A stretch of DNA of 64,000 nt, taken from positions 662,462 through 726,461 of the forward strand of contig JAUYID010000009.1 of assembly GCA_030704665.1 (NCBI GenBank), written 5' to 3'. The stretch is from a bacterium (GTDB taxonomy: Bacteria > Patescibacteriota > Microgenomatia > Woykebacterales > RBG-16-39-9b). The notes beneath the pieces were generated by a model. The model searched no databases, was not told the DNA's origin, and was given only the letters and a program-made list of their open reading frames with translations. This document shows positions 13,772 through 54,178 of this stretch, piece by piece. The translations under genes and the position numbers were made by a program. Positions within the stretch are counted from its first letter, which is position 1; each line of letters begins with the position of its first letter.

Positions 13772-13792
13772 GCGCACAAACCCGCCCAAACA

Positions 13793-13826
13793 GACCCCCG
13801 CACGCCGCGAGGGTCTTTCCTTTTTT
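13793..13826. terminator. Bidirectional intrinsic terminator between convergent genes
   Basis: GACCCCCGC-ACGCC-GCGAGGGTC hairpin followed by TTTCCTTTTTTGG. It lies between the 13214 gene (+) and glyQS (-). Confidence 0.55.
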
Positions 13827-21978: not shown

Positions 21979-22407
21979 TCAGGCACTGACAGGTGATTTC
22001 TTCTGCGCCACCACCAAAACACCCAAACGCATCAGATTGATTCCTGCCACCCTAACCGCACCAACATCGGCAAGATCATCTCGCGAGTCGGACTTGATGA
22101 AAAGGGTCAACCAAAAACCCGGACCAAGTTGCAACAAGAATTCTGCGTCAGGAAGATATCCTCGGATGTCCGTCAGATGAAACCTCACGTTTTCCCTGAG
22201 AAGATCCTCTACCCTCCCAAGACGATCGAGTTCCTGCTCGTCAGTCGTTGCCTCCTTGGCGGCAGCCAACACTATAGCCACTGCCTTGTCAGCTCCATCT
22301 TCATCACTGAAGAAAGCGTGATCCACAACTACCTCCTTGGCATTTGCCTGTTTCTTCCGGTTAGAGCAATTATACTTCTCGTCAGCAAATGAAGGTGTAT
22401 AATCCAA
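21979..22407 (-). CDS. Hypothetical protein in the GC-rich islet
   Basis: 142-aa ORF with no recognisable motif. Other-frame ORFs overlap it. Confidence 0.25.
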   Translation of the reverse strand: MDYTPSFADEKYNCSNRKKQANAKEVVVDHAFFSDEDGADKAVAIVLAAAKEATTDEQELDRLGRVEDLLRENVRFHLTDIRGYLPDAEFLLQLGPGFWLTLFIKSDSRDDLADVGAVRVAGINLMRLGVLVVAQKKSPVSA

Positions 22408-22455
22408 ATCAGCAACACGAAACGAGAGAGCCGAAAGGCTAGAAGGAGATTACCC

Positions 22456-22761
22456 ATGCTCGATGACAAGGTAGGTGAGACCTTTGCCTTTGACCTGGAC
22501 TGTACTCGCGATTGGTATCCAGTCGGAGATATAACCGAGGATGAAGCATGGAATTTAGCCAACTCCGCTGCTCCTCATAGCCAGTGGAATGATGAGGAGA
22601 TCACCGCCTTCATCGGCTACCAATACGCTACTGGCAAACGGGATTGGCCTGAGGAAATTGCTCTGGTTGTCACGGTCGATGAGCAGTTTGCCCATGCAGT
22701 CGTGCGCTGGGAAGGCAACTACTACCGTCTGCGACGGAAAGTTGAACCAGTGGCTGTATAA
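22456..22761 (+). CDS. Hypothetical protein in the GC-rich islet
   Basis: 101 aa. Canonical SD AAGGAGAT 5 nt before the ATG, and protein-like composition. Confidence 0.45.
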   Translation: MLDDKVGETFAFDLDCTRDWYPVGDITEDEAWNLANSAAPHSQWNDEEITAFIGYQYATGKRDWPEEIALVVTVDEQFAHAVVRWEGNYYRLRRKVEPVAV

Positions 22762-22963
22762 CAAGGAGAAGACGATGCCAACTGCACAAGAGTCAGCCTA
22801 CAGAGAACGTCTCAAGAACAGCTGGTGTGCGGTTGCGGCAGCACTGACTACACACAGGTCTGCGACCGTGGCAAGCCCAAGAACGGCCCGCCAGGGCTCT
22901 ACTGTCAATCCTGTTTCGAGGAGGCTGACGAGGATTAGCCAAAAGGCTGGAGGAGAGTTTTCC

Positions 22964-23383
22964 ATGGAAACTTTGCGGTTCCCGGACGATTATGACAGAA
23001 TGAGCCTTTGGCTCGCGACCACACCCGATGGCAGACGGATTGTTGAGGGGAAATTGGAAGAGTTCCCCAATCTCTTCTCCGAACAGTTCGATCAAGGACT
23101 TCGGGAGTTGGGATTCGACAGCGCCAATCTGCTGCGGGTCAAAGAATTAGCCTTGGATTGGCATAGGCAAGGTAGTTCTCAACGCGGACGGCTTTCCAGA
23201 ATCGATGTGGCCCTACTGCGAGCAGTCGAGCAGCAGTTGAGCATGTCTTTGGTGAGCCCACCACTAAAAGTCCGTCTTGAGAAACTCTCAAAGGAACTGC
23301 GACAAAACTCGCGCAAACGGCGTGGCCAGCGGACCGAGAGTCTGCGGGGTGCTGGTAACATCGTCATCGGACCCGGTTGTTAG
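22964..23383 (+). CDS. Hypothetical protein in the GC-rich islet
   Basis: 139 aa (METLRFPDDYDRMSLW...). GGAGGAGAG SD upstream. It is the protein-like 3' part of the 264-aa track ORF. Confidence 0.4.
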   Translation: METLRFPDDYDRMSLWLATTPDGRRIVEGKLEEFPNLFSEQFDQGLRELGFDSANLLRVKELALDWHRQGSSQRGRLSRIDVALLRAVEQQLSMSLVSPPLKVRLEKLSKELRQNSRKRRGQRTESLRGAGNIVIGPGC

Positions 23384-23557
23384 GAGGTGATCCGTGGCAG
23401 GTAACGCAACGGAACGACTACAAATTCGATACCGCAACGGCCGAGCGGTAAAACGCCCGCCTTGGGAAGAAGATCGAGGTGGAATGGTTGTGGTACCAGT
23501 TCACTCACCACTGCCGGTGTCGCAGATACCAAAAGGGCGGGAGTAGAGGAGAAGGTC

Positions 23558-23701
23558 ATGACACGCAAGCGAGGGCGCAAACAGCGCAAGCCCAAGCTTA
23601 CCGTTGAACAAGTCTGGTCCAGAATGGAGCGCTCGCTTGAGGAATGGGAGAAGAAATTACCCAAAGCCTCGGACAAGACGCTCCACATGGTTATCAACTG
23701 A
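23558..23701 (+). CDS. Small basic protein (47 aa) in the GC-rich islet
   Basis: MTRKRGRKQRKPKLTVEQVWSRMERSLEEWEKK... GGAGAAGG SD 6 nt upstream. Confidence 0.3.
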   Translation: MTRKRGRKQRKPKLTVEQVWSRMERSLEEWEKKLPKASDKTLHMVIN

Positions 23702-23729
23702 TAATCAACGGGGCGCAGGATCGACAACA

Positions 23730-23769
23730 CGAGCGACCAAAACTTTTTTGGCCGCTCGCTCCGTTTTTT
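23730..23769 (+). terminator. Intrinsic terminator at the right edge of the GC-rich islet
   Basis: CGAGCGACC-aaaactttttt-GGCCGCTCG stem (one mismatch), then CTCCGTTTTTT. Confidence 0.45.
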
Positions 23770-23787
23770 AGGACCTCTTCCCAAAAA

Positions 23788-24711
23788 ATGTATAATGAAA
23801 AGACTGTGCGGCTTTTTTCCTTTCTTCTCCTTAGTTTAATAGTCCTTTCCTTCCCAGGGAGTATCTTCGCCCACGGTTCTGGTCCCCCAATCCTGCTTAT
23901 GAATGGAAAGTATGCAAACAACAACCCTATCTTTACCTCGAGCACTACTGATATTCCCTTGGGAATGGATGTAGCACCGGAAAATTATTTAGTTAATACC
24001 CAGGTTAAGTTTTCCCTGACCCGCAAGAATTTGCCGGCTCCAAAAGAAGTCATCGATCGCTCTACTTTCGGCTGGAACTTTGCTGATGGCAGGCAGGGCA
24101 GCGGGTTAACCGTTTCTCATACCTTTACCAAACCAGGCACTTATATCGTCAAAATCACCGTCAAAGACCCGACTCAAAATACGGTTTTTGATCTCAATAC
24201 CGTGCAGCTGAATATTCTGCCCAACAAAGACTACTCCCTACCGCAAGCCAAGATAAAAATTAACGGTAAGCTGGTTGCAGACCCCCTCAAGGACACTTTC
24301 AAAGTCAAAAAAGGAGACGAAATTGAATTTGATGCGAGCCAATCTGTTGGCGATGGTTTGTCCTACCAATGGGACTTTGGTGATGGGGTGGCACAGAGAG
24401 GAAAGACTATAAAACATACCTACGCTGCCGACTTCTTCCCTAGTTTTCCACTGCTACGGGTCACTGACAAAAACGGCCTCTACAACGATACTTTTGCTGA
24501 GTTTTTTGGTCCTGAAGGTGGAGAAGGCTTTTTCCCAAACCCAGCCTACAAAGTCAATGATAGCAAAACTTCTTCTCCAACTGCTTCAGCAAACTCAAAA
24601 TCTAAAACTGACTTTCCTCTTTTACCTGCTCTGGGAATTGGAGGGGTAGTAGTATTTCTGACTCTAACTTTTTATTTGACCAAGCTTCGTCGCCAAGTGA
24701 AAAATAAGTAA
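23788..24711 (+). CDS. Secreted/cell-surface protein with two PKD-like domains and a C-terminal TM anchor
   Basis: Signal peptide MYNEKTVRLFSFLLLSLIVLSFPGSIFA. WNFADGRQG...HTFTKPGTYIVKITVKD and WDFGDGVAQRGKTIKHTY are classic PKD motifs. Hydrophobic C-terminus followed by KLRRQVKNK. Confidence 0.6.
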   Translation: MYNEKTVRLFSFLLLSLIVLSFPGSIFAHGSGPPILLMNGKYANNNPIFTSSTTDIPLGMDVAPENYLVNTQVKFSLTRKNLPAPKEVIDRSTFGWNFADGRQGSGLTVSHTFTKPGTYIVKITVKDPTQNTVFDLNTVQLNILPNKDYSLPQAKIKINGKLVADPLKDTFKVKKGDEIEFDASQSVGDGLSYQWDFGDGVAQRGKTIKHTYAADFFPSFPLLRVTDKNGLYNDTFAEFFGPEGGEGFFPNPAYKVNDSKTSSPTASANSKSKTDFPLLPALGIGGVVVFLTLTFYLTKLRRQVKNK

Positions 24712-29800: not shown

Positions 29801-30870
29801 GGTCTAGCTTCTTCCAAAAATTCCTTTATCTTCTCAACAAGAAGACCACTAGCATTTCCAGCACCAAAACTAGTTTTCTGCCCGCCTCGGGATTGAAAAT
29901 TTCTAATCGCCTCAACTATTTTTTCTTTGTCAGACCCCACCAAGAGGTTCCAACCATCCTCGATAGTCTCCACCCACTCGGTTTCTTCTCGCAAAGTAAT
30001 GCAAGGAATTTTGAGAAAATAGGCTTCTTTTTGCACTCCGCCTGAATCAGTCAGAATTTTTTTGGCGTTAGCTTCAAGTTTTAACAAATCAAGATAACCA
30101 AGAGGTTCAATCGCCAGTACATTTTCGGGAATTTTTGTTTCTGAATCTTCAAGAGCCTTTTTTGTGCGTGGATGCAAAGGCAGAACAATTTTTTCCCCAC
30201 TCTGAAGAAAACCTTCAAGAATATTTTGTAAATTTTTAATCGAATCAGTGTTTTCAGCCCGGTGGATTGTTGCTAGTAAGTAATTTTTTTCTTCTAAAGC
30301 CAACTTTTCAAGAATTGTGGAATTTCTTTCTGCTAAATCTTTGTAGTTAATGATACTGTCAAACATAACATCACCAACTTTCCAAACTCCTTTTGTGATG
30401 CCTTCCTTTTTTAGGTTTTCTACTGCCGTCTCCGTCGGGCAAAAAAGTAGCGCTGAAAGGTGATCAGTCAGAACTCGATTGATCTCTTCAGCCATAGATC
30501 GGTTGAAACTACGCAAACCAGCTTCCACGTGGGCAACTGGATAGTGAAGCTTGGCGGCTGCAAGACCACCTGCCAAGGTTGAGTTTGTGTCTCCATAAAC
30601 CAGGACCAGATCTGGATGCTCTTTGACAAGCACTTCTTCTAGACGGACGAGCATTTCTCCAGTTTGTTTGCCTTGGCTTAAGGATCCAACGCCCAATTTA
30701 TAGTCAGGCTCCGGAATCTCCAACTCCTCAAAAAAAGCCTCTGACATATTTGGATCGTAATGTTGCCCGGTGTGGATTAAAACTTCCTGAAACTTTTTTC
30801 GTAATTCTTTTGAAACAACCGCTGCTTTGATAAATTGCGGTCGAGCTCCGACGACACTTACTATTTTCAT
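29797..30870 (-). CDS. UDP-N-acetylglucosamine (or UDP-2,3-diacetamido-glucuronate) 2-epimerase, WecB/WbpI family
   Basis: 357 aa. MKIVSVVGARPQFIKAA, HVEAGLRSFNR and the GDTNSTLAG motifs of non-hydrolysing 2-epimerases. Confidence 0.8.
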   Translation of the reverse strand: MKIVSVVGARPQFIKAAVVSKELRKKFQEVLIHTGQHYDPNMSEAFFEELEIPEPDYKLGVGSLSQGKQTGEMLVRLEEVLVKEHPDLVLVYGDTNSTLAGGLAAAKLHYPVAHVEAGLRSFNRSMAEEINRVLTDHLSALLFCPTETAVENLKKEGITKGVWKVGDVMFDSIINYKDLAERNSTILEKLALEEKNYLLATIHRAENTDSIKNLQNILEGFLQSGEKIVLPLHPRTKKALEDSETKIPENVLAIEPLGYLDLLKLEANAKKILTDSGGVQKEAYFLKIPCITLREETEWVETIEDGWNLLVGSDKEKIVEAIRNFQSRGGQKTSFGAGNASGLLVEKIKEFLEEARP

Positions 30871-32030
30871 ATTGTTAAACGCTTGTAAATAGCGAACAGT
30901 TTTTTTTCTTCAAGCTGCCAATTATACCTTCCCTCAGCTGCCTTTAGGGCATTGTTTTTCATTTTTTCATAAACACCTACCTCATTCAAAACTTGGTTGA
31001 TTTTACTCGCAATCTCTTTGGGGTTCTCTGGGTCAAAGACAACACCAATCTCTTCTTCCTCCACCAACTTTTTCATTTCCTTCATATTGCTGACCGCAAC
31101 CGGAAGTCCTGCAACTAAGTATTCAAAAAGTTTATTTGGAGTTGCCAAGTATTGATTTAAATTTGTTTTTAACATAGGAACAACCCCAAGATCAGCTGAA
31201 CTTGTATAATCCAACAACTGCTCGAGTGGCACTGATTCTAAAAAAACAATTTTCTTTTCAATACCAAGATTCCTCGCCAATTTTTCTAGTTGCGTTTTGA
31301 TTGGTCCCCCACCCATCAAAACTAGACCAAAGTTTTCCGGCCAGTAGACAACTGACTCAAGAAGCTGCCTTAAACCTCGCAGCCAACCAAAGGCTCCTTG
31401 ATACAAAACTACTTTTGTTCCTGGTCCAAAAAGGTCTTTAAACTTGTCCCTACTGGTCACCACGCCACTTCTGGGAGGAACATTGAGCAAAGTTTCAACT
31501 GCTTTAATCTTGTAACGCTTTTTCAATTCTTCCTTGATTGACTCATTGACCGTGATGACCAAATCAACTTTTCCAATAAGCTTTCTTTCAGAAAGACCCA
31601 TAATCAAAAACTTCAGTTTTAACAATAGATATTTGAACAAATTCATGTTTTTTCTATCCAAGGTTTCTAAGTAAAGCTCATGAGAATCATAAACCACTTT
31701 GGAGTTATTAGCTTTTGCTGCTAAATAACACAGAGGTAAAACAGGAAGGTCGTGGGCATGATAAACATCTGCTTTCTCTGCTTTTAATTCTTTCAGCGCC
31801 TTTTGCAAAGAAAAAACAAATCTCCAAGGTTTATAGATAGAGAAACAATCATAATTTGCCGAGGCTCTTTTAACTAAGAATTTGTTAACCTTCTCCTCAC
31901 TTGAATTTTTGACTGTTTTCTGAGCGTAAACTACTACTTCATAACCTGCTTTCGCTAAAGAAGCGGCCTCTTTGTTGACTCGGCTGTCATGATCCAAAGA
32001 ATTGTCAACGACCATACAAATTTTCTTCAT
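30867..32030 (-). CDS. Glycosyltransferase, GT4 family
   Basis: 387 aa, GT-B fold. Confidence 0.65.
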   Translation of the reverse strand: MKKICMVVDNSLDHDSRVNKEAASLAKAGYEVVVYAQKTVKNSSEEKVNKFLVKRASANYDCFSIYKPWRFVFSLQKALKELKAEKADVYHAHDLPVLPLCYLAAKANNSKVVYDSHELYLETLDRKNMNLFKYLLLKLKFLIMGLSERKLIGKVDLVITVNESIKEELKKRYKIKAVETLLNVPPRSGVVTSRDKFKDLFGPGTKVVLYQGAFGWLRGLRQLLESVVYWPENFGLVLMGGGPIKTQLEKLARNLGIEKKIVFLESVPLEQLLDYTSSADLGVVPMLKTNLNQYLATPNKLFEYLVAGLPVAVSNMKEMKKLVEEEEIGVVFDPENPKEIASKINQVLNEVGVYEKMKNNALKAAEGRYNWQLEEKKLFAIYKRLTI

Positions 32031-33079
32031 AGCACACTTTCATAAACTTCTTGATATTGCTTCGCCACAACTTTTGCATCATGATACTTCTGAACAAATT
32101 CGTAGCCTTTCTTTCCCAAAGCCTTCAGTTCCTCTTTTTCGGAAATTGCTTTTTTCAAGATTTCTTTTAGAGTGTCTTTACTTGCGTTAATGATTGGAAT
32201 TTCGTCCCCAAAAGGGACTAGGTCCTTGTACTCGTCCTCTAAATAACAAACTACCGGTTTTTCTAGGGCCATAGCTTCAACAGAAAAACCACCATACCAA
32301 CCAATCAAAAGTTGGTCGACAACGATATCAGAGCGGTTGATCTGTTCAAAAAGTTCTTCTTTTTGCACTTTTTCTACAAGAGTTAACTCTATCTCCATGC
32401 CTTCTTTTTTTAACTCCTCTACAGCACCCGTAACAAACTTAGTGCCTTTTATTTCCTGTTTTGTTGGAGCGTGCAAAATTGTGAAAGCTTTTTTCTCGTT
32501 ATTTTGTTTTTTAAACGCGTGAATTTCTTCTATATTTCTCGAGTAAGGAATTATGTGTGCCGACTTATTAGCCTGACTAGCCAACCAAGGACCAGCAAGG
32601 ACGATCGCGTCTGCATTGTCGATCAAAAATCCGTTTCTCTTCTTTTCATTTTCAAAAAATGTAGCTCCTTTCTTATGGAAGAAAGAGTAGTAAGGGCTTT
32701 CTTTTCCATCAGTTTCGACAGATTTTTTTACATCATAAAGCTCTGAGCCACGAAAATCGTAAATAACTTTTTTGCCTAAAAGTTTGAAGAAGAAATGGTC
32801 AAATCGATACTGGAAAAAGGTCCTTCCGTAGAAAAAATGAAAAATATCGTATTTAAAAAGTGAGGAAATTAATAGGTAGAGACCTTGAAGTTTTTGCAAA
32901 AGTTTGTTTGAAAACGGTCTGAGGGTTACATCACAAGGGGTGTTGACCCACCTTCCGGAAAAGCCAAAAAAATCAATCCTAAAGCCTTCTTTCCTTAGAA
33001 TCCTAGTGAAACTGTAGATTCCTTCCGAACCAGCGTTGTTGAAACCAACAAAAATCTTCTTTTTTTTCAGATCAGGCAT
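32027..33079 (-). CDS. Putative glycosyltransferase (divergent GT-B)
   Basis: 350 aa with a GT4-like C-terminal half (DIVVDQLLIGWYGGFSVEAMALEKPVV). Confidence 0.45.
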   Translation of the reverse strand: MPDLKKKKIFVGFNNAGSEGIYSFTRILRKEGFRIDFFGFSGRWVNTPCDVTLRPFSNKLLQKLQGLYLLISSLFKYDIFHFFYGRTFFQYRFDHFFFKLLGKKVIYDFRGSELYDVKKSVETDGKESPYYSFFHKKGATFFENEKKRNGFLIDNADAIVLAGPWLASQANKSAHIIPYSRNIEEIHAFKKQNNEKKAFTILHAPTKQEIKGTKFVTGAVEELKKEGMEIELTLVEKVQKEELFEQINRSDIVVDQLLIGWYGGFSVEAMALEKPVVCYLEDEYKDLVPFGDEIPIINASKDTLKEILKKAISEKEELKALGKKGYEFVQKYHDAKVVAKQYQEVYESVL

Positions 33080-34064
33080 TTTTGTTTTTAAGCTTGGTTA
33101 TATAATCTTTCATCTCTTTGATCGTTTCCTTGAGCCGAACGGAAAAATCAGTGGAAAATTCCATTCCCAACTTCTTTATTTTTGTGTTGTCGACCTCAAA
33201 GTTTTTGATGTCACCAATAGTCCAATCTTTGTAGTCTATCTGTGATTCATCTCTGCCAAAAGTCTCCAAAACTGCTTTGGCAAGCTCCCCGACAGTAACT
33301 TTGACACCAGAAGCGCAGTTATAAACTTTTCCAATACTACCATCATTTACCGCCACCAAAAGGTTTGCTCTGACAACATCCTTTACATAGGTGAAAGAAC
33401 GCTGCTGACTTCCATCTCCAAAGATAATCAGCGGTTTGTTTTCCATCATATTTCTGATAAAAATCGCCACTACTCCTCCAAAATCATTAAACTCTTGCCT
33501 AGAACCAAAAACATGAAAGTAGCGAAGCACCGTAGTATTGAGACCAAAGAGCTTGTGAAAAAGTATCGCGTATCTTTCCCCTGCCAATTTGCTAACTCCA
33601 TAGGTAGAAACTGGGCTCAGGGGATGACTCTCATCCTGAGGGAAAACAACAGGCTCACCGTAAACAGAACCAGTTGAAGCGTGAACAAATCTTTTTACTC
33701 CGGTGTCTCTTGAAAGCTCAAGTAAGTTAAAGGTTCCCTTGGCGTTTACTTCTAAATCCCTTCTTGGGTCTTTCAAAGAAACCGTTTTTTTCGAAGCTGC
33801 GTTGTGAAAAACAATATCAACTCCTGAAAAATGTTTTTTTAGGTCGTCAAAATCAGTGATGTCAGCTTTAACCCCTAGGAAATTTGGAAACTTTTTTAAG
33901 TCTTGAATATTTTCTTCTTTTCCAGCTACATAGCTATCCAAAGAAACGACCTCAATTCCGGTTTTGACCAACTCTTCACAGATATGTGAGCCGATAAAGC
34001 CGGCTCCACCAGTGACAAGCGCTTTTTTGTATTTTCTAGCAACTTCCTTGTTCAAATCCATCAT
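33072..34064 (-). CDS. NAD-dependent nucleotide-sugar epimerase/dehydratase (extended SDR)
   Basis: 330 aa. ALVTGGAGFIGSH Rossmann motif and a YxxxK region. Confidence 0.7.
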   Translation of the reverse strand: MMDLNKEVARKYKKALVTGGAGFIGSHICEELVKTGIEVVSLDSYVAGKEENIQDLKKFPNFLGVKADITDFDDLKKHFSGVDIVFHNAASKKTVSLKDPRRDLEVNAKGTFNLLELSRDTGVKRFVHASTGSVYGEPVVFPQDESHPLSPVSTYGVSKLAGERYAILFHKLFGLNTTVLRYFHVFGSRQEFNDFGGVVAIFIRNMMENKPLIIFGDGSQQRSFTYVKDVVRANLLVAVNDGSIGKVYNCASGVKVTVGELAKAVLETFGRDESQIDYKDWTIGDIKNFEVDNTKIKKLGMEFSTDFSVRLKETIKEMKDYITKLKNKNA

Positions 34065-34573
34065 TTCTCCTGACTAAATCTTTTTTTAATAAGCAGTGCC
34101 GGAACTCCTGCATAAACACCGTTTTTTTCCAAATCTTTAGTGACTACCGCTCCAGCTCCGATCACAACTCCAGATCCTACTTTCACTCCAGGAGTTATAA
34201 CTACATTGGCTCCAACCCAAACGTTATCTCCAATTTCAACTGGAAGTTTTTGCAAAACTCCCTCTCTGATTTTTACCTCTTTATCATCAAAAGGGTGAGT
34301 TGAAGAAAATATCTTTGTTCCAGTCGCGATAGAAACGTCATTACCAATTTTCACACCACCAAAGCCGGAGATGACACAAAACTCATGGATCGAAACATTG
34401 TTACCAATTTCGATTTCTTCCGGCTCCATGATAAAAACCGCCGTGCCGATCGAAACTGGGCGCCCCATTTTTTTCAGCAGCTTGCGATAACAAAACCTTC
34501 TCAACCGAAGAAAACTAGTTCCTTCCAAATATCTTATCAAGGTGACCAGTTTTCTCGCAATTAAAGTTTTCAT
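34061..34573 (-). CDS. Hexapeptide-repeat acetyltransferase
   Basis: 170 aa of left-handed beta-helix repeats (IGNNVSIH..., IGDNVWVGANVVI). Confidence 0.65.
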   Translation of the reverse strand: MKTLIARKLVTLIRYLEGTSFLRLRRFCYRKLLKKMGRPVSIGTAVFIMEPEEIEIGNNVSIHEFCVISGFGGVKIGNDVSIATGTKIFSSTHPFDDKEVKIREGVLQKLPVEIGDNVWVGANVVITPGVKVGSGVVIGAGAVVTKDLEKNGVYAGVPALLIKKRFSQEK

Positions 34574-36072
34574 GGCCTTGATCTAAATTTGTTAAGAGAA
34601 TTTGCAAGAATCTTGTTTACATAGCCGCTAAGCAGTTGCCTATCTAAATGACTCAGAGCGTTTAGTTTTATTATCAACAAAAGATAGACCAGAGAATAAA
34701 CAGTTCCTGCCAAAAACATTTTAACCAAGACCTCCAAATTTAGATACAAAATAAGGCTGATCGGCAAAGCTGAGAGAATCGAGATTGAGAGTATTTTCAA
34801 CACAACCGTCCAAGGAAAAACGTCTGCCAAGGAAATCTTCACGTAGCGTTTAATCACTATTACATAGTAAAAAACGTTGATAAAGGTTGAGATTACAGTC
34901 GCGACCGCTGGACCGGCCAAACCTAGAGTGAAAACCAAAACTGGATTCAAAATTGCGTTAATAACAAAAAAGACTATTGAGCCCTTTAAGTTTTCTCTAG
35001 TTTTTCCAATTGCCTGAAGTACTATACCGTAGCTAGCTACTCTGATCAAAAGTAAAAGCAGGTAAATTCTGAAATAAGGAACACTACTGGCGAATTTTTC
35101 TGAATAAAGAAGCGTAATTATCTCGTGGGAAAAAATCATGGCGATGACAAAAACGGGCAAGATAATCAAACTAATTTTTCTGATTGAGTTGTGCCAAACC
35201 TCTACCAATCTCTTTGTATTTCCTTCTGAATAGGCTTTGGCCATTTCCGGTAAAACGACTTGGTTTACCGAAGATCGTATTAAACTCACAAAAGGTATTT
35301 CGGTCGCTCCAACCACGTAAACAGCATAAAGTTCTGGGGGGAAGTTGATTGAAACTACAAGTTTATCGAACTCCCAAGCGATCAGACCAATGATTGAAGT
35401 CACCCCCAGTGGGATACCGTAAGCCAGTTGCTCTTTATAGTTTGAAAGATCAAAACTAAGGATCTTTTCCAAAGCAACCATTCTTTTGGTATAAATGATT
35501 CCAAAAAACGGGAAAATCAAACTCACCAATGACAAAGCCAAGAAGATTATTTGTAAATTACCTCCAAACAAAAAGGCCAAAGTCACCGTTGGAATAAAGA
35601 AAAGAGTACTTCTGACTATTGGGTAAATCAAAAGCAAATTTAGCTTGTTGTACATGATCAATAAAGGTTGGAAAAATTGCTCCACGACCGTGGCAAAAGC
35701 ATAAACGCTAAAAATCATCAGGGGGATCATCAGTTTGGGGTTGTGCATGACTCTCGGAGCCCAAAAAGCTGAAACAAAAATAAAGACGGTTAACAAAATG
35801 GCCGTAAAAATCAGCAAGGAAATAGACCGGCTGATAAACTGCTTTTTTAGTTCCAAATCCCTGATACGGGGAAGAAAATAAAATAGACCAGCAGGAATAC
35901 CAACAGTAAAGATTGGAGTAAAAATTTGATAGACTAAAAAGACTTGTTTATAAGTTCCAAAATCGGTTCTTGACAAAAGTCTAGCTAGTACAACACCGGT
36001 CAAAACAGTCAAAACCTGGGCGGCGCCACTTCCGAAGGCAATCAATATAGCTTTTGAAGTAAGCGTTGTCAT
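34570..36072 (-). CDS. Polysaccharide flippase (Wzx / MOP superfamily)
   Basis: 500 aa with about 14 TM helices. N-terminus is typical of polysaccharide biosynthesis protein (Wzx) family members. Confidence 0.65.
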   Translation of the reverse strand: MTTLTSKAILIAFGSGAAQVLTVLTGVVLARLLSRTDFGTYKQVFLVYQIFTPIFTVGIPAGLFYFLPRIRDLELKKQFISRSISLLIFTAILLTVFIFVSAFWAPRVMHNPKLMIPLMIFSVYAFATVVEQFFQPLLIMYNKLNLLLIYPIVRSTLFFIPTVTLAFLFGGNLQIIFLALSLVSLIFPFFGIIYTKRMVALEKILSFDLSNYKEQLAYGIPLGVTSIIGLIAWEFDKLVVSINFPPELYAVYVVGATEIPFVSLIRSSVNQVVLPEMAKAYSEGNTKRLVEVWHNSIRKISLIILPVFVIAMIFSHEIITLLYSEKFASSVPYFRIYLLLLLIRVASYGIVLQAIGKTRENLKGSIVFFVINAILNPVLVFTLGLAGPAVATVISTFINVFYYVIVIKRYVKISLADVFPWTVVLKILSISILSALPISLILYLNLEVLVKMFLAGTVYSLVYLLLIIKLNALSHLDRQLLSGYVNKILANSLNKFRSRP

Positions 36073-43702: not shown

Positions 43703-45083
43703 TCTTGCCGCCTCTTTTCGAGACCCAAGTGGTTTTCTTTTCAAAATTGACAATACCGTCTACCGACAAATAAATTCTTCTTACCGAGAGCACTTTGATT
43801 TTTTGCTAAAAAGCGGGCTCTATAAAAAATTAACCAGCGAAGGACTTTTAATTCCCCATCAAGAAGCCAACCTTTCTTTGAAACAAACCTCCCGGGCTTA
43901 CAAAATTATTAAACCCACTCAAATTCCGTTCATCTCTTATCCTTACGAGTGGTGTTTTAGCCAGTTGAAGGACTCTGCTTTGGTAACTTTAAAAATTCAG
44001 AAAATCGCTTTGGAACACGGAATGACCCTCAAAGATGCCAGCGCCTTCAATATTCAGTTTTTTGAAGGCAAACCCGTGCTGATTGATACTCTTTCCTTCG
44101 AAAAATACAAAGAAGGTGAACCTTGGGTGGCTTACAAGCAGTTTTGCCAGCATTTTTTGGCTACCTTGGCGCTTATGGCTTATACAGATTTTCGACTCTC
44201 CTCTTTGTTCAAAAATTACATTGACGGAATTCCTCTAGACTTAACTGTTAAACTTCTTCCTTTTAAAGCAAGGCTACGTATTCCACTTTTTTTGCATCTT
44301 TTCATGCACGCCAAGAGCCAAATTAACTACGCCGACAAGCAAGTGAAAAAAGAAGAAATTAAGAAAAGTATTTCAAAAACTTCCCTCCTGGCTCTAATTG
44401 ACAGTTTGGAAAGTGGGGTAAACCTACTAAAATGGAAGCCAGCAGGAACCGAGTGGGGCGACTACTACCCAGAAAACAACAATTATGTTTCTAGCGCACT
44501 AAAACAAAAAACGAATTTGGTGAAGGCTTTCTTAAACAGCCAAAAAACAAACTCTGTTTGGGATTTGGGAGGAAATACAGGCTTGTTTAGTAGACTTGCT
44601 TCTGATCAAAATATCCCCACCGTTTCTTTTGATATTGATCCGGATGCGATTGAAGTTAGTTATGAAACTCTTAAAAATAAAAAAGAGAAGTTCATTCTGC
44701 CTCTGCTGCTTGATCTAACTAATCCCAGTCCGGCTTTAGGCTGGGACAACCAGGAAAGGGACCCTATACTTTACCGAGCCAAGGTTGATACGATCTTCGC
44801 TCTAGCTATAATCCATCATCTGGCAATTTCGAACAATGTCTCTTTAGAAAATTTGGCTTCTCTATTCGCCAAACTTTGTAATAACTTGGTCGTTGAATTT
44901 ATCCCCAAAGAAGATTCTCAAGTTCAAAAACTTCTGGCCACACGAGAAGACATTTTCCCCGACTATACCAAGGAAGGTTTTGAAAAAGCCTTTGCAAACT
45001 TTTTTCTGATTGAAAAGTGCGAACTTATCAAGGCTAGCAAAAGATTTTTGTATTTAATGAGAAAAAATGGCCAAAAAGAATAA
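43689..45083 (+). CDS. Two-domain protein with a C-terminal class I SAM-dependent methyltransferase fold
   Basis: Start at MAKNNLAASF. WDLGGNTGLFS matches motif I (D/E-x-G-x-G-x-G). Confidence 0.5.
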   Translation: MAKNNLAASFRDPSGFLFKIDNTVYRQINSSYREHFDFLLKSGLYKKLTSEGLLIPHQEANLSLKQTSRAYKIIKPTQIPFISYPYEWCFSQLKDSALVTLKIQKIALEHGMTLKDASAFNIQFFEGKPVLIDTLSFEKYKEGEPWVAYKQFCQHFLATLALMAYTDFRLSSLFKNYIDGIPLDLTVKLLPFKARLRIPLFLHLFMHAKSQINYADKQVKKEEIKKSISKTSLLALIDSLESGVNLLKWKPAGTEWGDYYPENNNYVSSALKQKTNLVKAFLNSQKTNSVWDLGGNTGLFSRLASDQNIPTVSFDIDPDAIEVSYETLKNKKEKFILPLLLDLTNPSPALGWDNQERDPILYRAKVDTIFALAIIHHLAISNNVSLENLASLFAKLCNNLVVEFIPKEDSQVQKLLATREDIFPDYTKEGFEKAFANFFLIEKCELIKASKRFLYLMRKNGQKE

Positions 45084-46695
45084 AGTAACTGTAACTTTCT
45101 CAAAAGACTCTCTACTAAATTTCTTCAAAAAGCTGATCCAAGAACCGATCTATTTTTTCTTGTTTGCTCTCTATCCAACTTTATCGCTCTACTCGCAAAA
45201 CATTTCCGAGCTTTTTCCGGAAAAGATTCTTCCTTCACTAATTTTCGTTCCCACTCTAAGTTTAGTAATTTTTTTCCTCCTCTCCAAGCTTTTCAAAAGC
45301 AAAGACAAGGCAGCTCTCCTGGTCCTCTTGGTGCTGGTTTTAGCTTTCAATTATGACTTAGTCAAAACCTCTTTGCCTGATTTCACTTTTAATATCTTTG
45401 GTCTTGCCCTTGGTGCAAACAAAACCCTGGTTCCTCTCTTTGGATTTATTCTTCTTTTTGGTAGCTATTTAATCATCAGAAAAGGTAGTGCCAAGCTGAG
45501 GCAACCTCTAAATTGGTTGGTCATTCTTCTCCTTGTCTTTCCTTTGTTCAAAATCTTTTCTTACGAAGTAGGAACGAAAAGGTTTTTTGGTTTAACAAAA
45601 AGAGAAGTGGTGATTGAAAGCACTGACAAGCTGACCCTACCAAAAGACCCACCAGATGTTTATTACTTCATTTTTGACCGCTACGCTAGCTTTCAAAACC
45701 TCAAGGAGTTCTACAACTATGACAACAAAGAATTAGCTGACTTTCTAACTGAGAAAGGTTTTTATCTCGCCAAGGCCAGTCGCGACAATTATCCAGCTAC
45801 CTTCCTGTCTGTTTCAAGCTCTTTAAACTTAAATTACATCACTTCTCTGGTCAAGGCTTTGCCCAAAGATTCAAATGACCAGACTTTAGTTTATCCTCTC
45901 ATGGCCAACTACAAAGTCGAAAAAGATTTGAGAGCCCTTGGTTATAAATATTTTCATGTGGGCAGCTGGTGGAATCCGACCCGGGCCAACAAAAACGCCG
46001 ACAAAAACTATGTCTTTCGATTGTCCAATTTTGTCAATCTGGACGAGTTTTCTTCCAAACTTTTGGAAACAACCATTTTTTCACCAATCATCCAAAAACT
46101 AAATCGTTTCGATCTTGATGAACCCTACGGAAACTTTGATCACAGAAACAGAATTCTTTTTGGTCTGCAAAGTCTGAAAAAAATTCCCCAAGAGAGGGGA
46201 GGCCCAAAATTCGTTTTTGGTCATATACTTCTTCCACACGCTCCTTATGTTCTCGACCAAAACTGCAAACCAATCAGACCGGAACAGACAAAAAAACACT
46301 CTCCGGTAGTAAATTATCTCAACCACATCAAGTGTGCCAATTCAAATATCAAAGAAATTGTGAACAATATCCTGGCACAGTCGAAAAACTCGATCATCGT
46401 CATCCAGGCTGATGAGGGTCCAACCCCAATTTTGAACAAGGTCAGTCAGCGCTGGGACAAATCAAGCTTGAAGTCCCTGAAAGAAAAAACCGGAATTCTC
46501 AATGCCTACTATTTCCCTGACCAGAATTACAAAAACCTCTACCAGACGATTACCCCGGTCAACACTTTCCGGCTGGTTTTCAATCAGTACTTTGGGGCCA
46601 ATTTTAAAAAATTGGAAGACAAAATTTTCATTTTCGAAAACCCTACCGGAGCTCCGTACAAACTCCACGATCGAACCAAAGAAATTTTTAAATAG
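45067..46695 (+). CDS. Membrane-anchored alkaline-phosphatase-superfamily (sulfatase/phosphotransferase-like) protein
   Basis: 542 aa: an N-terminal multi-TM domain, then a soluble domain with YYFIFDRYAS and HILLPHAPY motifs. Confidence 0.5.
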   Translation: MAKKNKVTVTFSKDSLLNFFKKLIQEPIYFFLFALYPTLSLYSQNISELFPEKILPSLIFVPTLSLVIFFLLSKLFKSKDKAALLVLLVLVLAFNYDLVKTSLPDFTFNIFGLALGANKTLVPLFGFILLFGSYLIIRKGSAKLRQPLNWLVILLLVFPLFKIFSYEVGTKRFFGLTKREVVIESTDKLTLPKDPPDVYYFIFDRYASFQNLKEFYNYDNKELADFLTEKGFYLAKASRDNYPATFLSVSSSLNLNYITSLVKALPKDSNDQTLVYPLMANYKVEKDLRALGYKYFHVGSWWNPTRANKNADKNYVFRLSNFVNLDEFSSKLLETTIFSPIIQKLNRFDLDEPYGNFDHRNRILFGLQSLKKIPQERGGPKFVFGHILLPHAPYVLDQNCKPIRPEQTKKHSPVVNYLNHIKCANSNIKEIVNNILAQSKNSIIVIQADEGPTPILNKVSQRWDKSSLKSLKEKTGILNAYYFPDQNYKNLYQTITPVNTFRLVFNQYFGANFKKLEDKIFIFENPTGAPYKLHDRTKEIFK

Positions 46696-46700
46696 TTTCC

Positions 46701-48239
46701 ATGTTTAAATTTACAAACTCAAAAAAACTTCCTTTATGGGTAAAAAACTCTTATCCGATTGCGCAGCTTTTTTTCTTTTCTATTTCCCCAATACTTTATT
46801 TGTTTTCAAACAACACTGATCAGGCAACTGTAAAAGAACTTGTTTTCCCAATCATTTTGTCCCTTTCTTTTTCGCTTCTTCTTTTTAGAGCCGCTCTTTA
46901 CACTTTGGGGAAAATCAAAGCCGCTCTTTTTGTTAGCCTCTTCAACATTCTCTTTTTTTCCTATGGGCACCTAAAAACCTCGCTTGGTGAGATAAGACTA
47001 ACCCTAAATTTTTCGAAAGATGAAATACTTTTACCTATTTTTGTCCTCACTTTGCTCTCTGCTTTCTTTTTTCTCTGGAAAAGTAAAAAAGCGCTCGCCC
47101 CTTTGGCAAAGCTGATCAGCAATCTCGGTTTACTTCTTATCATCTTTGCACTTTTCAATACCTTTTCTACCTCTCTAAAAAACGGTTTTCCAAAGTGGGA
47201 GGAGAAAGAACCAACCAGTGCCTCAGAACTAAAAACAAGAGTTTCAAACCAACCGGATATTTATTACCTAATTCTTGATGGTTATGCCAATGAAAAAATC
47301 CTAAAAAGTGGTTATAAATTCGATAACGCGAGTTTTTTGGATTCTTTGAGCAATAGAGGTTTTTATATTGCTCATGATAGCCGAAGCAATTACCCACTCA
47401 CTTTGCTGTCGCTGTCAAGCTCGATGAATATGAATTATCTGGACTTTATTGATGATAAAAATCTCACTGATCAGGAAAAAAGGCGTAAAGCTTACTTGGG
47501 AATAAGAAACGGAGAACTGCCAAAATTCTTGAAAGCAATGGGCTACACTTTTCTAGACATCGGTACTGGCTGGGTCGGTACCGACCACAACCAGTATGCC
47601 CACGAAGTTATCAAATATCCGCAAAGAACTGAGTTTATCAAGCTTCTTTTCAGTACCAGTGCTCTTACTTTGATAGAGCGTTACCAAAACGATGCGGCCA
47701 AATCGATTCTCTATGCCTTTGACCAAATCGAAAAGATTTCGAAAAGAAAGGAGAGTACTTTTACTTTTGCTCATATTATTTCTCCGCACCCACCTTATCT
47801 TTTTGACGAAGCAGGAAACATCCTCGCGCAACCAGAAAAAGACATTGGTGTTTTCAAACTTTGGAAGCAAAAGGACAGTTATATCAGTCAGTTAAAGTTT
47901 ATCAACAAAAAAGTTCTGAGCCTGGTTGAGCAGATTTTGAAGAATTCCCCTCAACCTCCACTCATTGTCATTCAGTCCGATCACGGACCCACAACCATGG
48001 ATCAATTTTTTCTGCCCCTAGAAAGCTTGACTGAAGAACAAACAAACGAGCGCTTTGGAATTTTGAACGCTTATTACTTACCCGCCGGCGGCCAAAGGCA
48101 GCTGACCCAAACCATAAGTCCGGTCAATTCATTCCGAAAAATATTGAATTTTTATTTTGGTGGCAACTTCAAAACTTTAGAAGACAAACATTACTTTACC
48201 GGCTACAGTGATTTTCAAGAAGCAGTCAAGTTTGATTGA
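46701..48239 (+). CDS. Membrane-anchored alkaline-phosphatase-superfamily protein, tandem paralog of the preceding gene
   Basis: 512 aa with the same architecture (IYYLILDGYAN, HIISPHPPY) and collinear similarity to 45067..46695. Confidence 0.5.
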   Translation: MFKFTNSKKLPLWVKNSYPIAQLFFFSISPILYLFSNNTDQATVKELVFPIILSLSFSLLLFRAALYTLGKIKAALFVSLFNILFFSYGHLKTSLGEIRLTLNFSKDEILLPIFVLTLLSAFFFLWKSKKALAPLAKLISNLGLLLIIFALFNTFSTSLKNGFPKWEEKEPTSASELKTRVSNQPDIYYLILDGYANEKILKSGYKFDNASFLDSLSNRGFYIAHDSRSNYPLTLLSLSSSMNMNYLDFIDDKNLTDQEKRRKAYLGIRNGELPKFLKAMGYTFLDIGTGWVGTDHNQYAHEVIKYPQRTEFIKLLFSTSALTLIERYQNDAAKSILYAFDQIEKISKRKESTFTFAHIISPHPPYLFDEAGNILAQPEKDIGVFKLWKQKDSYISQLKFINKKVLSLVEQILKNSPQPPLIVIQSDHGPTTMDQFFLPLESLTEEQTNERFGILNAYYLPAGGQRQLTQTISPVNSFRKILNFYFGGNFKTLEDKHYFTGYSDFQEAVKFD

Positions 48240-51021: not shown

Positions 51022-51957
51022 TCAACTTGACGGCTCTGCGTTCAGCTTTTTTTGGAAATGATCAATAGTTTTTTGCAAGCCCTCTACTAGGCTGGTTTGT
51101 GCTTCCCAACCAAGAACTTTCTTGATCATCTCGACACTAGCGTAAGTTTCCTGAGCATCCCCTGCTCTCGGGCCAAGATCAGTGATCGGTACTGAATGCC
51201 CGACTAAACTAAAGATTTGCTTGACGAGGTCAATCACTTTTTCGCCACTGCCGGTACCAACATTGAGAGTGTTCATTCCTTCCAGCTCCAAAGCCCGAAC
51301 GTGAGCGACTGCCAAATCCTCGACGTAAATAAAGTCCCGAACTTGCTCTCCTTTCCAGTATAAAGGAATTGGCTCATTTTTAATGGTTTTAACAACAAAA
51401 TTCGGAATGGCGTGTGTCTCCGGCTCGTGATTCTCCCCTGGTCCATAAGGATTGAAATAGCGCAGCAAGGTAGCCTCAAAACCCCAATTGTGGTGGTAGG
51501 CTGCGATCATCTGCTCCATCGCTACCTTCGTCGCGCCGTAAGGATTGGTCGAAAGGCCAATTGGATCGGTTTCTTTGATTGGTAAGTTTTTGATTTCCCC
51601 GTAAACGGTGGCTGAAGAAGAAAAAATTATTTTTGTCACTCTTGCTTGCCGCATCACTTCCAGCAATTTCACGGTCTTAACGATGTTGTTTTCCGTATAC
51701 TCAACCGCCCGCTCAACTGATTCGGGAACAACGATGTAATTCGCCAAATGAATAACTGCTTCTTGCCCAGAAAGAACTGCGCTCATTTTTTCGCTGTCCG
51801 CAATATCAGCTTCAACAAATTTCGCTTTTGGATTTATTCCTTCTGGAAAGCTCCGGGAAAGATTGTCAACAATTGTAACTTCGTGACCAGCTTCAATTAG
51901 CTTGTCGGCAACATGTCTACCTATAAATCCGGCGCCCCCGGTCACGACTACTTTCAT
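51022..51957 (-). CDS. UDP-glucose 4-epimerase-family NAD-dependent epimerase
   Basis: 311 aa. VVVTGGAGFIGRH and a YGATK catalytic region. Confidence 0.75.
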   Translation of the reverse strand: MKVVVTGGAGFIGRHVADKLIEAGHEVTIVDNLSRSFPEGINPKAKFVEADIADSEKMSAVLSGQEAVIHLANYIVVPESVERAVEYTENNIVKTVKLLEVMRQARVTKIIFSSSATVYGEIKNLPIKETDPIGLSTNPYGATKVAMEQMIAAYHHNWGFEATLLRYFNPYGPGENHEPETHAIPNFVVKTIKNEPIPLYWKGEQVRDFIYVEDLAVAHVRALELEGMNTLNVGTGSGEKVIDLVKQIFSLVGHSVPITDLGPRAGDAQETYASVEMIKKVLGWEAQTSLVEGLQKTIDHFQKKLNAEPSS

Positions 51958-52099
51958 TTAGTGACTCCACTTCCTTTCAAGAGTTCTTCAACTTTAAAAC
52001 CTTTATCCAGCTTTGCGCTTATGCTCCGCATAATCTTAAATCCGGCTCCTACAGTTACTAAAAACCTCAACGAGGAATCCTCCTTTTCTAATTAATAAA

Positions 52100-52147
52100 A
52101 CCCTAACCCCTAACCCCTAACCCCTAACCCCTAACCCCTAACCCCTT
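52100..52147. repeat. Tandem heptamer repeat (CCCCTAA)n of about 6.5 units; TTAGGGG on the minus (coding) strand
   Basis: Direct reading: ccctaa cccctaa cccctaa cccctaa cccctaa cccctaa cccctt. It overlaps the last codons and stop of the GT2 gene and lies about 165 bp upstream of the GalE-like start. Confidence 0.9.
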
Positions 52148-52873
52148 CAATTTTAACCTTCGGTCGCGCAGTTTAAAGGCGGTCCAAACAAACTCTATTA
52201 TATCCCCTGGGCCAATTTTGGTATGCCCTATCTTTCTTTCGACAAACTCCACCGGAACTTCTTTGATCTTTCCGCCTCCCACAAAAGCTTCAAAAAGTAA
52301 GCTCATTTGAAAAGAATAGCCTTTGACGTGAAGCTTGGTGAGATCGATTTTTTTGAGCAACTCAACTCTGATTGCGCGGAAACCGGCCGTACAATCCGCC
52401 ACGTCATCGATGCCAGCGATATAACGGGCAAAACGGTTGCCCCAACGGCTGTTGGCTTTTCGTAACAAACTCCAACCCTCTGGTATCTTACCTCCGGGGA
52501 CGTAACGACTACCAATGACAAAGTCAGCCCCAGAATCAATTTCAGCAATCAGTCGCGGTAAATCCTCTGGCTTGTGGGAAAGATCGGCATCCATCTCGAC
52601 GACGATCTCTGCCTCTAACTTTTCCATTGCGTAGCGCATTCCGCGAATATAGGCTGCTCCAAGGCCTTGTTTTTCACCGCTAACCAAATGAAGGTTTTTG
52701 TGAGTTTTAATTAGTTCGCCGACTGCCTGCGCTGTTCCATCCGGAGAGTTGTCGTCAACCACCAGTATTTGCAGGTCGTGATTAATTCTATTTCTTTGCT
52801 CCGCGAGCAATGGAATAAGTTTTTGGATGTTTTCGCGCTCACGGTAAGTGGGGATGATGACAACAATTTTCAC
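52124..52873 (-). CDS. Polyprenol-phosphate glycosyltransferase, GT2 family (DPM1-like)
   Basis: 249 aa. IIPTYRERENI ... VVDDNSPDGT ... EMDADLSH (DxD) motifs. The C-terminal GLGVRG residues are encoded by the heptamer repeat. Confidence 0.8.
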   Translation of the reverse strand: MKIVVIIPTYRERENIQKLIPLLAEQRNRINHDLQILVVDDNSPDGTAQAVGELIKTHKNLHLVSGEKQGLGAAYIRGMRYAMEKLEAEIVVEMDADLSHKPEDLPRLIAEIDSGADFVIGSRYVPGGKIPEGWSLLRKANSRWGNRFARYIAGIDDVADCTAGFRAIRVELLKKIDLTKLHVKGYSFQMSLLFEAFVGGGKIKEVPVEFVERKIGHTKIGPGDIIEFVWTAFKLRDRRLKLKGLGVRG

Positions 52874-54116: not shown

Positions 54117-54150
54117 TGTTCTAATTATAGGTTGCCGGAAATTGCTTGTC

Positions 54151-54178
54151 AAAAAAAGACCCCGCCTTGCAGCGGGGT
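54151..54178 (-). terminator. Intrinsic-terminator-like hairpin read on the minus strand (ACCCCGC-tgcaag-GCGGGGT, then T7)
   Basis: 7-bp GC-rich stem with a 6-nt loop and a U-run on the minus strand. It abuts the alternative TTG start (54152) and lies 35 bp upstream of the first ATG (54116) of the minus-strand gene. Confidence 0.4.

Follow-up and report, generated by a model that had tools for sequence, protein, structure and literature searches.

A TTAGGGG heptanucleotide tract between a glycosyltransferase gene and an epimerase gene in a small-genome bacterium is probably a young, near-neutral microsatellite

The STRR1-type heptamer CCCCAGT of cyanobacteria was reportedly described by Mazel et al. 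in 1990, and we take it to belong to the class of G-rich heptameric SSRs. Rehm et al. (2015; PMC4692102) described such repeats as GGGAATC in Xanthomonas and GGGGA(C/T)T in Nostoc, the latter with about 89 tracts in 6.4 Mb. They prefer sites between co-directional ORFs, near the ORF on the 5′ side, and the positional criterion for the class is a non-coding location that overlaps a stop codon or lies within 50 bp of one. The tracts are mostly transcribed, are unlinked to mobile elements and differ in length between species, and oligonucleotides carrying them form G-quadruplexes (G4s) in CD experiments; a regulatory role was not found, and phase variation was judged unlikely (PMC4692102). Other repeats also bear comparison. 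The (ATCTTTC)n repeat of hmw1A and hmw2A in H. influenzae is a transcribed, non-coding heptanucleotide SSR upstream of a gene, where the number of units alters the length of the RNA and shifts no frame; it is pyrimidine-rich, needs at least 11 units and pairs with a G-rich arm in a hairpin that is cleaved by RNase III (PMC12721329). The TAACTGA repeats of Beggiatoaceae, Cyanobacteria and Bacteroidetes are intergenic heptamer direct repeats found in several phyla, with a stop codon in the unit; they lie a few nucleotides before start codons, and a post-transcriptional role has been proposed for them (PMC4679880). Eukaryotic telomeres have repeats of the TTAGGG family, which in Cutaneotrichosporon take the form TTAGGGG.

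The window, by which we mean the whole 64-kb stretch of DNA analysed here, contains on its minus strand, at 52101–52146, the heptamer tract (GGGGTTA)6GGG with seven G-runs, which was delimited by Tandem Repeats Finder (TRF), by the sequence itself, by its uniqueness and by G4Hunter. The coding strand at this point reads GAA(GGGGTTA)6GGGTTTTATTAATTAG. TRF assigns the tract a period of 7, 6.6 copies, 100% matches and a score of 92, against 44 for the second-best repeat of the 64 kb. When a two-unit probe was run over the window with up to two mismatches, its matches were confined to the tract, and their count was reached in none of 100 dinucleotide-preserving shuffles. The tract is a real feature of the window. 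The original prediction of a perfect TTAGGGG tract on the coding strand of a co-directional gene junction, encoding GLGVRG* (asterisk, stop) at the end of a GT2 gene, agrees with the TRF result, the ORF and the sequence; further TTAGGGG tracts, which it had proposed to look for, are absent from the window, where the two-unit probe finds this one alone. Each GGGGTTA unit brings a TAG (on the opposite strand, a TAA), and since 7 is coprime to 3 the array has stop codons in every one of the six frames.

In most respects the tract resembles the repeats of Rehm et al. It has a 7-nt unit made of a G3–4 run and a 3-nt A/T-rich spacer, more than the four G-tracts that are the minimum (seven, with a G4 in silico), co-directional ORFs on its two sides with the G strand coding, an overlap with a stop codon (that of GT2, in unit 3), no association with mobile elements and a length that varies between relatives. 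It differs in its unit, GGGGTTA, which has no occurrence in PMC4692102; in its host, a small-genome bacterium of the CPR/Patescibacteria type with one copy in 64 kb; in its 6.6 units, which exceed the four-unit mode of the class; and in a G4 that is predicted rather than shown by CD. One tract in 64 kb is a density not incompatible with the about 89 in 6.4 Mb of Nostoc. A literature search for the exact TTAGGGG unit returned telomere and primer matches and no report of a bacterial array. With the hmw repeats the tract shares a heptanucleotide unit, a transcribed (here probably transcribed) position upstream of a gene and a unit number that would alter RNA length with no shift of frame, but it has no complementary arm and only 6.6 units, and it is located at the 3′ end of the preceding ORF. 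It is like the TAACTGA repeats in being a heptamer direct repeat at a gene junction, with a stop codon in the unit and an occurrence in several phyla; unlike it, those repeats are not G-rich, cannot form a G4 and sit a few nucleotides before start codons. The telomere-like form claimed for the tract stands as far as the unit goes, which is identical to that of Cutaneotrichosporon and has the same G4 propensity. Its setting is not that of a telomere: the tract is internal and not at a replicon end, is 46 nt long, lies between syntenic bacterial genes and runs in the same direction at the two contig ends of an independent assembly (see below), and comes with no evidence of telomerase.

On the 5′ side of the tract lies a gene for a GT2 glycosyltransferase (52124–52873, minus strand; PF00535, 3.5e-30) that resembles polyprenol-phosphate mannose synthases. 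A protein identical to it over 100% of positions, on a 938-kb MAG contig, is named polyprenol monophosphomannose synthase at NCBI, and its closest named relatives, at ~65% identity, come from Woykebacteria and other Patescibacteria. The protein ends in ...KGLGVRG*, of which the last six codons and the stop derive from the tract; both the sequence and the allele simulation described below place the TAG stop codon (52124–52126, minus strand) in the third repeat unit. The next functional cistron, 143 nt on the 3′ side of the tract and on the same strand, encodes a GalE-like NAD-dependent epimerase (51022–51957, minus strand), which matches PF01370 and scores 251.8 bits against the GalE model TIGR01179, slightly below the cutoff of 262.3. 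The 166-nt spacer between the two genes is occupied. It holds TTTTATTAATTAG (52088–52100, minus strand), identified from the allele with no units and from comparison with relatives as the remnant of the ancestral GT2 tail and stop, then an AAGGAGG ribosome-binding site (RBS; 52079–52085, minus strand) with a duplex energy of −11.6 kcal/mol against a generic, not host-specific, anti-SD, and then, 8 nt further on, the TTG start of a 38-codon ORF (51954–52070, minus strand) whose TGA overlaps the ATG of the epimerase (ATGA). The junction had been described as the upstream region of the GalE-like gene, which is correct as far as it goes; what had been missed is that this short ORF, with its own AAGGAGG site, is a relic of the epimerase itself. 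Its peptide, MRFLVTVGAGF..., resembles the Rossmann N-terminus of the epimerase, and alignment points to a partial tandem duplication of the epimerase 5′ end. Orthologous relics occur in two related loci (L125, 4646–4753; L126, 2135–2242) and are missing from five others (L123, L124, L127, L128 and L200); relic aligns with relic at a score of 68 and with the functional epimerase at 14–24. Since the frames differ among the window, L125 and L126, and that of L125 closes after 25 codons, the 38-codon ORF is on these alignments a pseudogene fragment, consisting of the duplicated epimerase 5′ end and RBS, and predates the tract. A conserved small protein in the spacer is ruled out by the unconserved frame in L125 and L126 and by a Pfam search of the 38 residues, which gave no match.

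The best sigma-70-like promoter match (54124–54152, minus strand), with 12 of 12 positions, is found upstream of the 403/415-aa gene that precedes GT2, directly after a terminator-like hairpin (54178–54159, minus), and we regard it as the probable promoter of the operon. With this promoter upstream, and with the minus strand free of terminator-like sites from 54124 to the end of the epimerase gene at 51022, the tract is probably transcribed within a polycistronic mRNA. The tract is not itself an intrinsic terminator, as it ends in GGGTTTT but has no hairpin. Rfam 15 covariance models gave no match at E≤1 in 51800–52400 and no family at gathering score across the 64-kb window, in which ARAGORN found no tRNA genes. 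We note that the TTG listed as the start of the 415-aa ORF shares bases with the −35 hexamer; the true start is therefore probably further downstream, and the gene call in the Logan assembly is 403 aa.

For comparison, we aligned the corresponding junctions of six related loci (L123–L128) and of L200, whose GT2 proteins are 70–82% identical to that of the window. The order SecA, GT2, epimerase, CofD, GlmS is conserved in L123–L128, where the spacers between GT2 and epimerase measure 9, 13, 105, 105, 32 and 71 nt and none contains the tract. In L200 (82% GT2 identity) the GT2 stop overlaps the epimerase start, again with no tract. At the 3′ end of GT2, a search of 78 related loci (320 kb) revealed neither a period-7 repeat nor a G4 tract; these loci together contain one period-7 repeat of at least three units, located elsewhere, and three G4 motifs, in keeping with the predicted rarity of such tracts, at least in this lineage. 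Beyond the conserved RRLKLK, the GT2 tail changes from lineage to lineage (KNLRGG*, SNHF*, GKIKKEALI* and KVISKG*, against GLGVRG* in the window). If the tract is deleted in silico, GT2 becomes a protein of 247 aa ending in ...KLKGFIN*, with an intact TAG at 52090–52088, 2 nt before the RBS, and this tight arrangement of stop and RBS matches that of the relatives. The window also has in common with L125 the short G-run AAGGG. The tract-free junctions of the relatives, the divergent GT2 tails, the intact ancestral stop and the 6.6 perfect copies with no degenerate unit lead us to conclude that the tract is, by this comparison, a recent and lineage-specific expansion in the unconserved tail of GT2. 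In the closest relatives, the Shine–Dalgarno site of the epimerase lies inside the GT2 tail, beside the stop codon (L123, 4720–4760, GGAGGTTAA; L200, ~880–905, AAGGGGTATCGTGA, where the GT2 stop overlaps the epimerase GTG). The likeness of these junction sequences to the GGGGTTAG unit suggests that heptamers of this kind may originate where an SD site and a stop codon meet.

When prokaryotes were scanned with one genome for each species, at least 120 loci with (GGGGTTA)3GGGG came to light. The matches listed do not include the source genome; they come from Planctomycetota, Acidobacteriota, Cyanobacteria, Chloroflexota, Gammaproteobacteria, Bacteroidota and CPR (Parcubacteria, L031; Uhrbacteria, L068), and several genomes are matched repeatedly. 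The listed tracts have a median length of 30 nt, 17 of 120 being as long as that of the window; many sit within degenerate GGGGNNN units, and they share no flank with the window tract. Flanking genes, called by a longest-ORF heuristic, were resolved at 75 of the at least 120 loci, and are co-directional at 46, convergent at 20 and divergent, an under-represented arrangement, at nine. Among the matches listed, the tract lies nearer to its 5′ neighbour, as read along the G strand, than to its 3′ neighbour in 56 of 75 cases (p=2e-5; median gaps of 18 versus 69 nt), and ORFs end inside the tract more often on the G strand (19/47) than on the C strand (8/61; p=0.0016). Going by these sequences, the window tract is a typical, rather long and unusually clean member of a widespread class. 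By the statistics, within the matches listed, the positional rule of Xanthomonas and Nostoc holds for a further unit and across many phyla; the bias towards cistron ends suggests that the placement of such tracts is not purely neutral and bears on a possible function of repeats at cistron boundaries.

We consider it probable that the tract is a young, lineage-specific and near-neutral G-rich heptanucleotide microsatellite, born by slippage and belonging to the described G4-prone class. It would have arisen in place by replication slippage, from the short G-run AAGGG in the unconserved 3′ tail of GT2, possibly through an intermediate of one to two units at the junction, GGGGTTAGGG. Such an insertion would be tolerated because its TAG/TAA unit puts a stop in all six frames; the GT2 frame would be closed within 21 nt at any copy number and the catalytic domain left untouched. 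The consequences are that the GT2 tail changes from KGFIN* to KGLGVRG* and that the GT2 stop, once 2 nt before the next RBS, is now 38 nt before it; seven G-tracts would in addition be present in the polycistronic mRNA and on the non-template strand of the DNA. The slippage origin and the near-neutrality, the latter from the absence of the tract in relatives, are what we infer, as is any G4-mediated loosening of the coupling between GT2 and the cistrons downstream.

An entirely different account would be that the tract marks an error of assembly, unrelated contigs having been joined via telomere-like reads, for instance those of a fungus whose telomeres consist of TTAGGGG, or the ends of two replicons having been fused. 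The telomere unit of Cutaneotrichosporon is indeed TTAGGGG, and the Logan assembly of the sample from which the window comes (SRR13727534), which contains the exact GT2 and epimerase proteins, has them on two contigs that both end in the tract: one closes with ...GAAGGGGTTAGGGGTTAGGGGTTAGGGGTTAG (in a longer form, ...ATTGAAGGGGTTAGGGGTTAGGGGTTAGGGGTTAG) and the other opens with GGGTTTAGGGGTTAGGGTTTTATT. A break at this point is, however, the normal behaviour of a k=31 graph in a perfect repeat of 46 nt. Each flank carries the repeat independently and in direct (same) orientation, where true ends would be inverted, and the order GT2, epimerase, CofD, GlmS is conserved in L123–L128 and L200, with the join as expected. 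Gene order in the relatives and repeat orientation on both contig ends together establish that the join of GT2 to the epimerase is correct; mis-joined telomeres or a chimera are ruled out on these grounds, and we assign an artefact next to no probability. Exact matches to GT2, to the epimerase, to the relic ORF and to CofD came from SRR13727534 alone, and a metagenome scan returned no contig of the same species and no relative above 73% identity. At the tip of one of the Logan contigs (L002, 1–24; SRR13727534_45945) the sequence is GGGTTTAGGGGTTAGGG, compared with GGGGTTAGGGGTTAGGG in the window, a G-to-T substitution in the penultimate unit with no change of length, which may be a read error or a minor heterogeneity of the population. 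The original prediction had taken the tract for a contingency locus, in which slippage would switch the frame or stop of GT2, or a promoter, on and off. That the unit length is not a multiple of 3, that the genes on either side are concerned with glycans of the cell envelope, which phase variation typically targets, and that a one-base repeat variant exists in the same sample are all in its favour. We simulated alleles of 0 to 11 units, asserted against the native sequence. GT2 is 247 aa long with no unit, 248 aa with one and 269 aa with two, and an identical protein of 249 aa results from every allele of 3 to 11 units, as the GT2 frame, read into the tract at its 5′ edge, meets its stop in unit 3; the stops in all six frames account for this constancy. 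The changes at two units or fewer all fall in the tail that is unconserved among relatives. Contrary to what had been expected of a 7-mer, slippage over 3 to 11 units thus alters neither the C-terminus nor the stop of GT2, and because the protein is the same a frameshift switch is rejected for all alleles of at least three units. The tract is furthermore at the 3′ end of its ORF and not at the 5′ end, it lies outside the interval between the −35 and −10 hexamers of every predicted promoter, the one-base variant is a substitution that may be a read error and not a change of length, and phase variation was judged unlikely for the heptamer class by Rehm et al. (PMC4692102). The frameshift version of the contingency reading is largely refuted, and a classical contingency locus as a whole seems to us very improbable. 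What does vary with copy number is how far the GT2 stop lies from the RBS: the spacing, now 38 nt, shifts by 7 nt per unit.

A role in expression deserves more weight. The predicted G4 capability of the tract is upheld in silico: its G4Hunter mean is 2.16, it is the sole canonical G4 motif of the 64-kb window (the other region above 1.5, at 13775–13806, is marginal at 1.56), and ViennaRNA gives the 71-nt RNA around it −33.3 kcal/mol with G-quadruplexes and −2.1 kcal/mol without. An RNA G4, or a G4 in the non-template DNA, could after the GT2 stop tune the polarity of the operon through pausing of RNA polymerase, a block to 3′–5′ decay, uncoupled downstream translation or a weak SD-like array, and the copy number of the tract would then be a graded rheostat. 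Consistent with such a functional intercistronic element, the tract lies in a probable operon with no terminator nearby, four of its seven G-runs are 3′ of the GT2 stop codon, so that a G4 could persist while the ribosome terminates, and each unit is calculated to pair with a generic, not host-specific, anti-SD at −6.4 kcal/mol, compared with −12.2 kcal/mol for a canonical SD; a heptamer SSR is moreover a graded regulator in the hmw1A 5′-UTR of H. influenzae (PMC12721329). The hmw mechanism, on the other hand, needs a long hairpin with a complementary arm and at least 11 repeats, and the 71-nt RNA has no complementary C-rich arm and only the −2.1 kcal/mol given above when G4s are left aside, which does not correspond to a 5′-UTR rheostat of that type. 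Rehm et al. found no regulatory role for the class (PMC4692102), and the tract is missing from all relatives with the same operon, so it is no conserved regulatory part. A very stable predicted G4 inside an operon could nevertheless affect expression, which counts against near-neutrality, and a G4 or spacing effect on the downstream cistrons is possible on these models, without support from conservation. We regard a functional element of this kind as unlikely. A broader proposal is that TTAGGGG-type arrays are a widespread and convergently evolved operon punctuation: where a cistron ends, they would unite a six-frame stop with an RNA or DNA G-quadruplex and weak SD-like sites, and so insulate the following cistron or tune its expression. 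On this view the window tract would have only just arisen, as a new case of such punctuation in a minimal CPR genome. This we consider a speculative reading with a low probability. The recurrence of one heptamer across phyla and within genomes would also be accounted for if the tracts were deposited by an enzyme or a mobile element, such as a templated reverse transcriptase or a MITE with repeat arms, and the at least 120 (GGGGTTA)3GGGG loci over diverse phyla, with some genomes matched repeatedly, speak for it, as do some tracts in Gammaproteobacteria MAGs that form the outer arms of a conserved palindromic element. Yet within 2 kb of the 120 listed tracts the only gene families that recur are generic large ones, with no reverse transcriptase or transposase among them, the window tract has neither the TCGGAGGTG flank of that element nor a target-site duplication, and the many arrays in degenerate GGGGNNN units are typical of slippage followed by decay. 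Deposition of this sort is in our judgement highly implausible for the window tract.

As a slippage-born microsatellite, the tract would by itself be a small, probably near-neutral insertion, and its analysis corrects an attractive phase-variation reading. It would provide a clean natural example of the birth of a repeat, one in which the tract can be set beside its ancestral stop, its seed G-run and orthologous junctions that lack it. It also suggests how G-rich heptamers that bear TAG/TAA could settle harmlessly at gene ends, by closing every reading frame.

The palindromic element of the Gammaproteobacteria MAGs has the form (GGGGTTA)n-G-TCGGAGGTG, then 15–110 nt, then CACCTCCGA-C-(TAACCCC)n. 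We located it in L008 (4350–4524), L020 (4962–5064), L098 (4430–4522) and L113 (102–208), and it is also present in L011, L034, L041, L058 and L099; its sequence has the appearance of a REP- or MITE-like unit whose arms are heptamer arrays, and it has no relation to the window tract. A G4 motif resembling plant telomeres, GGGTTTAGGGTATAGGGTTTAGGG, occurs in two metagenome contigs (L153 and L154, minus strand, 5468–5491), where a distant GT2 homologue (46% identity) lies about 2 kb away. In the window, where GC is ~0.44, deviating stretches occur among 22001–24000, 30001–36000 and 44001–48000 (one 2-kb bin at 0.516 and two stretches at 0.38–0.39), which could be islands or differently constrained genes.
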